Source: a virus
Lineage: Duplodnaviria; Heunggongvirae; Uroviricota; Caudoviricetes
Reading direction: 5' to 3' (one strand)
DNA length: 5,828 bases
Virus record (IMG/VR): IMGVR_UViG_2700989162_000011
Shown here: in pieces, positions 1 through 4,472 of the stretch
Position numbering within the stretch: position 1 is the first letter of the stretch
Layout of the letters: every line of letters starts with the position of its first letter
Position numbers and translations under genes: made by a program
The notes under the pieces: generated by a model
Databases searched by the model: none
What the model was told of the DNA's origin: nothing
Seen by the model: the letters and a program-made list of their open reading frames with translations, nothing else

Positions 1-16
1 AACTAGTATTAAGACT

Positions 17-34
17 ATCACTTAAATAAGTGAT
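17..34. promoter_or_regulatory. Perfect inverted repeat ATCACTTA-aa-TAAGTGAT, operator-like palindrome about 45 bp upstream of the ORF starting at 78
   Basis: Read directly: 8-bp arms at 17..24 and 27..34 are exact reverse complements with a 2-bp centre. AT-rich with no following T-tract, so more like a protein-binding site than a terminator. Confidence 0.3.
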
Positions 35-77
35 ACTGGTTGTCTGGAGATTCAGGGGGCCAGTCTAGTCAGACCCT

Positions 78-1000: not shown

Positions 1001-1168
1001 ATGCACTTCCGAGTTACAGGTGAATGGAATGGAGAACCATTCAACAGAGTTATCGAAGCCGAGAACATCAGCGACTGCTATGACCACTGGATGCTGTGGG
1101 CGCAGATAGCACATGCAGACGTAACCAATATTCGAATTGAAGAACTGAAAGAACACCAAGCCGCCTGA
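1001..1168 (+). CDS. Small hypothetical phage protein, 55 aa (MHFRVTGEWNGEPFNRVIEAENISDCYDHWMLWAQIAHADVTNIRIEELKEHQAA); not in supplied ORF track
   Basis: Translated by hand. GGAG at 990..993 lies 7 nt before ATG 1001 (GGAGGG also at 973..978). Stop TGA 1166..1168 sits in the loop of a strong intrinsic terminator. Same position relative to ea8.5 as the 55-codon ORF I recall in lambda. Confidence 0.55.
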   Translation: MHFRVTGEWNGEPFNRVIEAENISDCYDHWMLWAQIAHADVTNIRIEELKEHQAA

Positions 1169-1180
1169 TGGCGGTTTTTT
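1158..1180 (+). terminator. Rho-independent terminator overlapping the stop codon of the 55-aa ORF
   Basis: AAGCCGCC (1158..1165), loop TGAT, GGCGGTTT (1170..1177): five G-C pairs plus G-U and A-U pairs, then a run of six T (1175..1180). Confidence 0.7.
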
Positions 1181-1194
1181 ATTGGAGACAAGAA

Positions 1195-1629: not shown

Positions 1630-1977
1630 GTGGAAGAAGAAATCTTCACTCGTGAAGAGGCAGCGTCGTATCTGAAGGTAGACAAAGGCACTATCACGCA
1701 GTGGATACGAAGTGGACGACTTCAGGCCGCAAAGATAAATCCAGATAAACCTAAAAGCCCATATCGCATTTGCAAGTCAGACTGCATTGCGGCGCTTAAG
1801 TCTGTGAGACACAATAGCGCGGTGAATGCGGTTGATGTGCAGGAGGTTAAAGCATGTCAATCAAACTACGCGGTGGCACGTGGCACTGCGATTTCGTCGC
1901 GCCAGATGGATCAAGAGTTAGACGCTCTCTTGAAACATCGGACAAAAGGCAAGCGCAAGAACTTCACGATCGTCTGA
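1630..1977 (+). CDS. xis: Excisionase / recombination directionality factor, P22 Xis-like, 115 aa, GTG start
   Basis: Immediately upstream of and overlapping int, as in lambdoid phages. GGAG at 1619..1622 is 7 nt before GTG 1630. Basic C-terminal tail (KHRTKGKRKNF). Length agrees with my recollection that P22 Xis is about 116 aa. The 3' end overlaps int by 124 nt in another frame. Confidence 0.7.
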   Translation: MEEEIFTREEAASYLKVDKGTITQWIRSGRLQAAKINPDKPKSPYRICKSDCIAALKSVRHNSAVNAVDVQEVKACQSNYAVARGTAISSRQMDQELDALLKHRTKGKRKNFTIV

Positions 1978-3014
1978 AAGCAGAAGCGTGGAGAGTAAAA
2001 AATCTCGGGGAATCACCGAAAAAGCTATTCAAGGAAGCCTGCATACGGTGGCTGCGTGAGAAATCGGATAAGAAGTCCATTGATGATGACAAGAGCATTA
2101 TATCGTTCTGGATGTTGCACTTCAGAGAAGCCATTCTCTCTGACATAACAACAGAAAAAATAATGGAGGCGGTAGACGGGATGGAAAACCGCCGCCATCG
2201 CCTGAACTGGGAGATGAGCCGGGACAGGTGTTTGCGACTTGGCAATCCGGTGCCGGAGTATAAACCAAAGCTTGCAAGCAAAGGAACGAAGACGAGGCAT
2301 CTGGCAATACTTCGCGCCATTCTCAATATGGCTGTTGAATGGGGATGGCTTGACAGGGCACCCAAAATATCAACACCACGCGTTAAGAATGGACGCATCA
2401 GATGGCTTACAGAGGAGGAATCGAAGCGCCTGTTTGCAGAAATTGCTCCTCACTTCTTCCCTGTGGTCATGTTTGCAATCACGACAGGCCTTCGCCGTTC
2501 CAACGTTACAGACCTTGAGTGGTCACAGGTCGATCTGGATAAGAAAATGGCATGGATGCACCCTGATGAAACAAAAGCTGGCAATGCGATCGGAGTTCCT
2601 CTTAACGAAACCGCATGCCAGATATTAAGAAAACAGCAGGGGCTCCATAAGAGATGGGTATTTGTCCACACCAAACCTGCCTACCGAAGCGACGGAACAA
2701 AAACAGCAGCGGTAAGGAAGATGAGAACCGACAGCAACAAGGCATGGAAGGGAGCGTTAAAGCGGGCAGGCATTAGCAACTTCCGCTTCCATGATCTGAG
2801 GCATACCTGGGCAAGCTGGCTGGTTCAGTCCGGTGTCTCTCTTCTTGCACTTAAAGAGATGGGAGGATGGGAAACTCTCGAAATGGTTCAAAGATACGCC
2901 CACCTTTCAGCCGGGCATCTCACCGAGCACGCAAGCAAAATCGATGCGATTATAAGTCGCAATGGCACAAATACGGCACAAGAGGAGAACGTGGTTTACT
3001 TAAATGCGAGGTAA
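1854..3014 (+). CDS. int: Site-specific tyrosine integrase, P22 Int-like, 386 aa
   Basis: Perfect SD AGGAGG at 1841..1846, 7 nt before ATG. Tyrosine recombinase motifs readable in the translation: TGLRRSN (box I Arg), HDLRHTWAS (His-x-x-Arg-His), RYAHL (catalytic Tyr). N-terminus and C-terminal region resemble my recollection of P22 Int; thrW is the known P22 integration target. Confidence 0.95.
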   Translation: MSIKLRGGTWHCDFVAPDGSRVRRSLETSDKRQAQELHDRLKAEAWRVKNLGESPKKLFKEACIRWLREKSDKKSIDDDKSIISFWMLHFREAILSDITTEKIMEAVDGMENRRHRLNWEMSRDRCLRLGNPVPEYKPKLASKGTKTRHLAILRAILNMAVEWGWLDRAPKISTPRVKNGRIRWLTEEESKRLFAEIAPHFFPVVMFAITTGLRRSNVTDLEWSQVDLDKKMAWMHPDETKAGNAIGVPLNETACQILRKQQGLHKRWVFVHTKPAYRSDGTKTAAVRKMRTDSNKAWKGALKRAGISNFRFHDLRHTWASWLVQSGVSLLALKEMGGWETLEMVQRYAHLSAGHLTEHASKIDAIISRNGTNTAQEENVVYLNAR

Positions 3015-3075
3015 CTTATTGATTTAAATGGTGCCGATAATAGGAGTCGAACCTACGACCTTCGCATTACGAATG
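3015..3075. other. Probable attachment-site junction (attL or attR) between int and the 3' portion of thrW
   Basis: Inference from architecture: tRNA-targeting integrases recombine within the 3' part of the tRNA gene and int lies next to the junction. Exact core boundaries cannot be set without the distal repeat, which is not in this window. Confidence 0.35.
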
Positions 3076-3104
3076 CGCTGCTCTACCAACTGAGCTATAT
3101 CGGC
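3029..3104 (-). tRNA. thrW: tRNA-Thr (anticodon CGU), 76 nt with encoded CCA
   Basis: Reverse complement reads GCCGATATAGCTCAGTTGGTAGAGCAGCGCATTCGTAATGCGAAGGTCGTAGGTTCGACTCCTATTATCGGCACCA: canonical D-loop AGCTCAGTTGGTAGAGC, anticodon loop TTCGTAA, T-loop GGTTCGACTCC, 3' CCA. Sits 114 nt downstream of proA as in E. coli K-12. Confidence 0.96.
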
Positions 3105-3220: not shown

Positions 3221-4472
3221 ACGCACGAATGGTGTAATCACCAATGCCGATCCACTTGTAAGTGGTCAGTGCTTCCAGCCCCATTGGGCCACGCGCGTGG
3301 AGTTTTTGTGTGCTTACCGCCACTTCCGCACCCAGACCAAACTGGCCGCCGTCGGTAAAACGCGTAGAGGCGTTAACGTAAACAGCGGACGAATCCACTT
3401 CGTTAACAAAACGCTGGGCGTTGCGCATATCGCGGGTCAGGATCGCATCGGAGTGTTGTGTGCCGTGTTCACGAATATGGGCGATGGCATCGTCAAGATC
3501 GCTGACGATTTTGACGTTCAAATCTAATGACAGAAACTCATCGTCATACTCTTCGGCTTTAACCGCCACCACCTTCGCAGGGCCTGCCTGCAACTGTGTC
3601 AGCGCAGCTGCATCTGCGTGTAATGTCACGCCGCTTTCCGCCATTTGTTTGCTTAATGCGGGCAGGAAGCTATCGGCGATGTTTTTATTCACCAGCAACG
3701 TTTCAACCGTATTACATGTGCTCGGACGCTGAGTTTTCGCGTTGACGATCACTTTTAATGCTTCAGCGATCTCTGCACTTTCATCAACGTAAATATGGCA
3801 TACGCCTATACCACCTGTGATCACCGGGATTGTCGACTGTTCACGGCACAGTTTATGCAAACCAGCGCCACCACGCGGGATCAGCATGTCGATGTATTTA
3901 TCCATACGCAGCATTTCACTGACCAGCGCACGGTCAGGATTATCAATCGCCTGCACGGCACCCGCCGGTAAGCCACAGGATTTCAGGGCGTCCTGAATCA
4001 CCGCCACCGTTGCCGCGTTAGTGCGACAGGTTTCTTTACCACCACGCAGGATCACCGCATTACCGGTTTTCAGGCACAGCGAAGCGACATCAACCGTCAC
4101 GTTCGGGCGCGCTTCATAAATCACGCCAATAACCCCCAGCGGTACGCGACGACGCTCAAGACGCAGGCCGCTGTCCAGTACGCCGCCATCGATTACCTGC
4201 CCCACCGGATCGGCGAGGTTGCACACCTGACGTACATCGTCGGCAATGCCTTTCAGCCGTGCGGGCGTCAGTGCCAGACGGTCAAGCATCGCTTCGCTAA
4301 GGCCATTGGCTCGCGCGTCAGCAACATCCTGGGCGTTAGCGTTGAGGATGATTTCGCTTTGTGCTTCCAGTTCATCGGCGATTTTTTCCAGCACGCGATT
4401 TTTTTCGCGGCTGGAGAGTTGCGCTAATTTATACGAGGCTTGCTTCGCGGCAATGCCCATTTGTTCCAGCAT
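3219..4472 (-). CDS. proA: Gamma-glutamyl phosphate reductase (glutamate-5-semialdehyde dehydrogenase), 417 aa
   Basis: Full-length ORF whose translation ([38 protein letters not shown] ... YTIRA) matches ProA as I recall it. Starts 11 nt after the proB stop, the classic proBA arrangement. Confidence 0.97.

Follow-up and report, generated by a model that had tools for sequence, protein, structure and literature searches.

A prophage orthologue of lambda orf55 whose stop codon lies in the loop of a candidate intrinsic terminator

A 55-codon open reading frame (ORF) that ends inside a terminator-like hairpin, close to the integrase gene of a lambdoid prophage, raises the question of whether it is a protein gene, a by-product of the RNA element at its end, or a self-contained cassette that serves the lysogen. 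We analyzed it in the context of the whole 5,828-nt stretch of DNA available, hereafter called the window. The ORF lies on the plus strand at 1001–1168, from an ATG at 1001 to a TGA at 1166–1168, and encodes 55 amino acids; a Shine-Dalgarno sequence, GGAG (990–993), is separated from the ATG by a 7-nt spacer (atgataa), exactly as the original prediction had described. The same prediction considered the ORF unlisted. It falls below the 60-aa default of the ORF tool and was listed at a cutoff of 30 aa, but it is publicly annotated as ORF55 in phage 434 (AAA67903), as lambdap35 in lambda, as HK022_33 in HK022, and as a hypothetical protein in RefSeq E. coli genomes. Its suggested correspondence to a 55-codon ORF of lambda was upheld, because lambdap35 (NP_597778; lambda 29118–29285) shares 96% protein identity with it, the window protein carrying two substitutions, S24N and L32I. 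It also matched phrog_676, a family with no assigned function, over positions 1–55 of 55 (E = 5.5e−40). With the group formed by lambda orf55, 434 ORF55, and HK022_33, the window ORF shares its 55-aa length and Shine-Dalgarno/ATG context, a tL4-type hairpin upstream, a stop-codon hairpin, and a location in the pL operon after ea8.5 and before the xis-int module. Judged by sequence, the ORF is thus an orthologue of lambda orf55 (434 ORF55), an entity that is already known, and what the window shows is no new entity but a gene and a terminator of lambda carried by a related prophage.

In the RefSeq annotation of lambda, lambdap35 is “predicted by GeneMark,” and the HK022 genome labels HK022_33 an “undocumented homolog present in lambda.” It is one of seven lambda exo-xis ORFs (PMC3824215), and in the part of PMC9239242 that cites Sergueev 2002, orf55, orf73, ea22, and ea8.5 are together implicated in inhibiting the initiation of host replication. 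Donaldson and colleagues modeled Orf55 in 2021 as three strands and one helix, with a speculative role like that of T7 Gp2 (PMC8614690). A genome-wide CRISPRi screen of lambda left out lambdap35 for want of a PAM (PMC10695390), and orf55 goes unmentioned in the yeast two-hybrid map of lambda. Since orf55 is among the last lambda ORFs without an assigned function, any firm clue to it is of interest to phage biologists. What we add is incremental and helps to frame experiments: evidence of strong purifying selection on the gene, a family that reaches proteins of about 40% identity, a stop-codon-in-loop terminator that travels with orf55, the position of orf55 directly after N in other lambdoid phages, and arguments against both a moron and a strict Gp2-like mechanism.

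When compared with phage records by megablast, the window matched lambda at 560–1184 (97.8% identity, ending at 1184) and mEp213, HK022, and 434 at 925–1620. On the plus strand, along which the early leftward (pL) operon runs, a truncated and possibly Ea22-like ORF (78–428), matching only positions 48–201 of the 243-position phrog_3205, is followed by ea8.5 (631–912; Pfam Lambda_ea8_5, E = 1e−48). Beyond the 55-codon ORF lie a 114-aa homologue of 434 ORF114 (1195–1539; phrog_1229; with GGAG 7 nt upstream), an HTH excisionase (1630–1977), and a tyrosine integrase (1854–3014). On the minus strand, a tRNA-Thr(CGU) at 3029–3104, the sole match in an Rfam scan, is followed by proA and proB, also on the minus strand. 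In other words, the order is ea8.5, tL4, ORF55, ORF114, xis, int, and thrW. Because the xis-int module shares 98% identity with those of HK542, mEpX2, and mEp213, whose annotated attP matches thrW, the window can be assigned to a lambdoid prophage of HK542/mEp213 type that occupies the thrW tRNA gene beside proA/proB, and it covers the int-proximal end of this prophage. The xis-int module of lambda differs from this thrW-specific one. The excisionase and integrase ORFs overlap by 124 nt (1854–1977) in different frames, and RefSeq has the same overlap in a related strain. At the other end, window 1–73 is a highly repeated sequence, found in 4,429 plasmid records and at a median of five places per E. 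coli genome; it resembles the terminal end of an IS3-family element, namely IS2, and adjoins the ORF at 78–428. The early operon of this prophage appears to be interrupted upstream of ORF55 by this mobile-element end, and the natural drive from pL may therefore be broken in this copy.

The history of substitutions in orf55 is that of a coding sequence. A database search yielded 98 relatives, mostly from E. coli, with full-length 55-aa versions at identities down to 73% (Klebsiella). Among 33 unique coding sequences, variable sites fell at codon positions 1, 2, and 3 in the numbers 25, 7, and 46. Against divergent copies, dN/dS in the orf55 frame was 0.06–0.13 (around 0.1), with pS saturated at 0.65–0.85 and pN at approximately 0.16. 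When the frames were compared, pN/pS was 0.20–0.27 in the orf55 frame and above 1 in four of the five others; the remaining frame, an antisense one, gave 0.31–0.32, slightly above the orf55 frame. An exhaustive profile search extended the family to relatives of 51–57 aa with 38–52% identity, which share a W-N...F...E-x-E-D...D...W pattern, with W9, N10, F14, E19, E21, D22, D25, and W33 kept. Divergent homologues, too, have purine runs resembling Shine-Dalgarno sequences before their start codons. HK022 has a 1-nt deletion just after the ATG, and an upstream in-frame ATG rescues the frame to give a 59-aa ORF. These results indicate that orf55 is a real protein gene under strong purifying selection, and the coding-type conservation, whose absence would have counted against the original prediction, bears out its claim of a small coding gene. 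A 57-aa antisense ORF at 986–1159 was rejected as a gene because pN/pS in its frame was approximately 1.2. A stronger Shine-Dalgarno-like sequence, GGAGG (973–977), lies before an ATG at 988 in another frame, where an 11-codon ORF begins that overlaps the start of ORF55; the length of this ORF is not conserved in lambda, and the HK022 deletion brings the ATG equivalent to 988 into the ORF55 frame.

The 3′ end of the gene coincides with a hairpin at 1158–1177 on the plus strand that forms, together with the T run behind it, a terminator-like element at 1158–1183. It was detected by terminator scan, by folding, and by identity with lambda. In the scan, it reads AAGCCGCC-TGAT-GGCGGTTT, then TTTATTGG, with eight pairs, five of them G-C, and a 4-nt loop in which the TGA stop occupies the first three positions. 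The six T's, which are followed by ATT, belong partly to the stem base and partly to the tail, and TTTATT follows the hairpin. Folding gave −13.4 kcal/mol for the region (z = −3.3), better than each of 200 shuffled sequences. The scan returned nine terminator-like sites in a 3.2-kb region, compared with 2.7 ± 1.7 expected. A G+C-rich stem, a short loop, and an immediate U tract are all present at 1158–1183, so that the stop hairpin is a candidate intrinsic terminator, which would presumably act as such in vivo. The scan, the fold, and the shuffled controls all agree with the original description of a TGA in the loop of a terminator with a G-C stem and a T run.

The identity of this hairpin can be read from its lambda counterpart. 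From GCCGCC through the T run (GCCGCCTGATGGCGGTTTTTT), the window and lambda are the same base for base. In lambda, the T run is followed by CTTGCGTGTAATTGCG, the TTGC-N6-TTGC cII site of pI, and then by the ATG of xis, and we take the lambda hairpin abutting pI to be the t′I terminator. Lambda t′I is said to have been placed just upstream of pI by Benedik, Mascarenhas and Campbell in 1983, and our own literature search on tL4, tL3, and t′I found nothing relevant. Because the ORF55-stop hairpin is identical in sequence to the lambda hairpin directly upstream of the cII-dependent pI, it is probably the equivalent of lambda t′I. In the window, however, the hairpin is followed by ORF114, and no TTGC-N6-TTGC motif like that of lambda, 434, and HK022 follows position 1184. 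ORF114 also stands between the hairpin and xis in 434 and HK022, whereas lambda lacks it. In the 434 record M60848, the annotated order is t-L4, ORF55, ORF114, t′-I, xis, and int; the t′-I label is therefore on a second hairpin (GCCGCATCAATGCGGCTTTT), which is similar and follows ORF114, and not on the ORF55-stop hairpin, which in 434 carries a stem mismatch (GGAGG). In both 434 and HK022, the second hairpin lies 3′ of ORF114 and precedes the same pI sequence. From this arrangement, ORF114 looks like an insertion at t′I bounded by two similar hairpins. The similarity to lambda stops at the T run (1178–1184, plus strand), and in other phages the T run is followed by at least six unrelated downstream sequences, indicating that it is a mosaic junction. 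The HK022 annotation calls ORF114 an “N15 early protein homolog.” Immediately after its stop codon in the window is a hairpin, GCCTCATACTCGATGAGGC (1545–1563), which has no T run and is conserved in 434 and HK022. A sequence similar to the GCCTCATACTCGATGAGGC hairpin also precedes a DUF1233-type xis at locus L007 (approximately 4335–4360).

The placement of the stop codon in the loop is not peculiar to the window. The loop lengths of the variants differ, which put the 3′ arms out of register in the MAFFT alignment and made a column-wise count of covariation impossible; the hairpins were therefore scored sequence by sequence. In 14 of 16 distinct 3′-end variants, the stop codon was inside a hairpin loop closed by at least four G-C pairs, and 13 of these variants also had a T run. 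The stems varied (CCGCC/GGCGG, GGCTGCC/GGCGGCC, GGTCGC/GCGGCC, and AGCCGC/GCGGCT) with the pairing kept, and the stop codon was TGA, TAA, or TAG. The recurrence of a stop-in-loop terminator across the family with different stems is a modestly new point. There are exceptions: the stem is degenerate at L007, the hairpin lacks a T run at L103, and in some alleles (GACGCC, AACGCC) the stem has only four pairs. In the Yersinia homologues of ORF55, a terminator was looked for at the end of the gene and none was present. Given these weak alleles, exceptions, and terminator-less homologues, the terminator is not obligatory for the gene, and conservation of the protein is independent of the RNA element.

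The same data bear on the idea that the conserved element is the RNA or DNA itself, a terminator or another regulatory sequence, and that the open frame is incidental. The stem indeed fixes the last two codons of the window ORF (GCC GCC), its coding face reads as the Ala-Ala with which the protein ends, and this C-terminal pair follows the hairpin across the family; the final six residues are predicted to be disordered (pLDDT 54). On the other side, the frame-specific purifying selection is strong and spans the whole ORF, the fold predicted by AlphaFold2 is confident, the frameshift in HK022 is compensated, and the Yersinia homologues retain the protein without the terminator. An incidental ORF is thus extremely improbable. 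A more ambitious reading joins the protein and the hairpin into a conserved early “host-takeover” module with a translation-gated terminator. According to this reading, the small acidic protein would bind a host target, for example RNA polymerase/sigma-70 or, in line with the “bin” phenotype, the machinery of replication initiation. Selection would favor the terminator because ribosomes finishing orf55 occlude the 5′ arm of the hairpin, and translation of orf55 would thereby gate the leak of unmodified transcription into the next module, be it xis-int or the remainder of pL. That the stop-in-loop arrangement recurs with different stems at 40–50% protein identity, both beside N and beside xis, is compatible with it, but we consider it unlikely in this full form.

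On the upstream side, orf55 is preceded by a second terminator-like element, a hairpin with a T-rich tail at 930–961 on the plus strand (hairpin 930–951), recognized by scan, fold, and homology. The scan gave it nine pairs, its folding energy was −13.1 kcal/mol (z = −5.9), and the homologous sequence is annotated as “tL4 terminator” in HK022 (X51962) and “t-L4” in 434 (M60848). The hairpin ends approximately 40 nt before the Shine-Dalgarno sequence of orf55. No sigma-70-like promoter was found in 951–1000; the best candidates (7–8 of 12) lay upstream of tL4 or overlapped it. Downstream of the stop hairpin, the plus strand goes on with ORF114, which has its own GGAG, and then with xis and int, an order shared with 434 and HK022. 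Divergent homologues of ORF55 lie upstream of xis/int or downstream of N, the distant ones directly or one to two genes downstream of N-family genes (Pfam N36 / N_peptide). Because terminators are present on both sides and the gene has no promoter of its own, we infer that orf55 is transcribed only from pL and only under N antitermination, and the location of distant homologues just downstream of N likewise points to an early pL gene. These features suggest that orf55 is most likely an early pL gene that depends on N antitermination. Its transcription would fall in the early phase that follows infection or induction, and the repressed lysogen would not transcribe it. N-modified polymerase would read through the flanking terminators, and the stop hairpin would halt unmodified polymerase before the downstream module (ORF114-xis-int). 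The hairpin would also serve as a recombination boundary between modules. In Klebsiella prophages, a weak hairpin and a T run occur just before the Shine-Dalgarno sequence of ORF55.

This arrangement is difficult to reconcile with a moron, that is, a self-sufficient cassette that carries a promoter and a terminator, is expressed by the lysogen, and acts in exclusion, host modulation, or anti-defense, as had originally been proposed for this gene. The resemblance is real in several respects. Like the lambdoid morons (bor and lom of lambda, and gp15 of HK97), orf55 is a small accessory gene with a terminator and a mosaic boundary; it is bracketed by terminator-like hairpins, also in the Klebsiella prophages, and the boundary falls in the T run, as expected of a mobile cassette. 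It differs from them, however, in lacking an own promoter between tL4 and its ATG, in belonging to a repressed early operon and not to the late region, and in showing no compositional anomaly (G+C 0.47, compared with 0.34–0.52 in the flanks). Furthermore, the operon goes on through downstream genes with their own Shine-Dalgarno sequences, the distant homologues belong to the N-proximal part of the repressor-controlled early operon, and PADLOC gave no match. We therefore regard a moron as very unlikely. The accompanying view of an independently terminated small gene holds for the terminator hairpin, which is present, but not for the transcription unit, which continues past it. The explanation that we prefer, and consider quite probable, is that the gene is the orthologue of lambda orf55, an N-dependent early pL gene with a t′I-type hairpin at its end, encoding a small protein that would bind a host protein.

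As for the protein, Orf55 is small (6.5 kDa) and acidic (pI 4.9; family pI 4.3–5.4). The AlphaFold2 model has a beta-beta-alpha-beta topology with a pLDDT of 90; the lambda row was left out of the structure prediction and HMM runs. No family was found for ORF55 in Pfam (E ≤ 0.1), NCBIfam, or PADLOC, and a profile search against PDB sequences yielded no match with E below 0.49. Most likely, this small protein binds or inhibits a host protein and would do so in early development. Lambda depends on the host RNA polymerase for its whole cycle, which argues against a phage protein that dampens transcription by this enzyme. Such a protein has nevertheless been envisaged, with T7 Gp2, which is also small, acidic, and early, as the proposed analogue; Orf55 would bind the beta-prime jaw and sigma-70 region 1.1 and dampen early sigma-70 transcription (PMC8614690). 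The strand-strand-helix-strand topology, the size, and the acidity (pI 4.9 and 4.6 for Orf55 and Gp2, respectively) agree with this proposal, and a Foldseek search of viral models retrieved three Gp2-type “RNA polymerase inhibitor” entries with TM scores of 0.57–0.66. The structural likeness is probably only generic, however, since approximately 34 PDB clusters, including PurS and ribosomal protein eL20, scored above Gp2, and no Foldseek match reached E ≤ 0.001. An hhalign comparison with the Gp2 sequence gave a co-linear alignment of 43 columns with 28% identity, but with a probability of 2.5%, and neither the Pfam search nor the PDB search mentioned above produced a significant sequence or profile match. 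R45 of the lambda clade aligns with R58 of Gp2, and the equivalents of the critical Gp2 residues R56 and R58 are N43 and R45 (PMC8614690). Neither arginine is conserved family-wide: N, D, or E occupies position 43, and distant members have V, E, H, N, or D at position 45. A Gp2-like mechanism in the strict sense is accordingly unlikely, and because the Gp2 profile is weak and the arginine is not conserved, we commit ourselves only to a small acidic early protein that probably binds a host protein.

Some of the more distant relatives occur in other surroundings. In viral contigs L095–L104 (approximately 2490–2690), the ORF55 homologues, which come directly or one to two genes after N-family antiterminator genes, have 40–55% identity and stop-in-loop terminators of their own, and in L100 the next gene encodes a homologue of the Pfam GP17 superinfection-exclusion protein. 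Homologues with 45–49% identity are encoded in Yersinia genomes (L009 3001–3174 and L011/L012). By a reading of the ORF list, the L009 element has a 66-aa ORF resembling an AlpA-type excisionase and a 398-aa ORF resembling a P4-type integrase, suggesting that the orf55 family may extend beyond the lambdoid phages.
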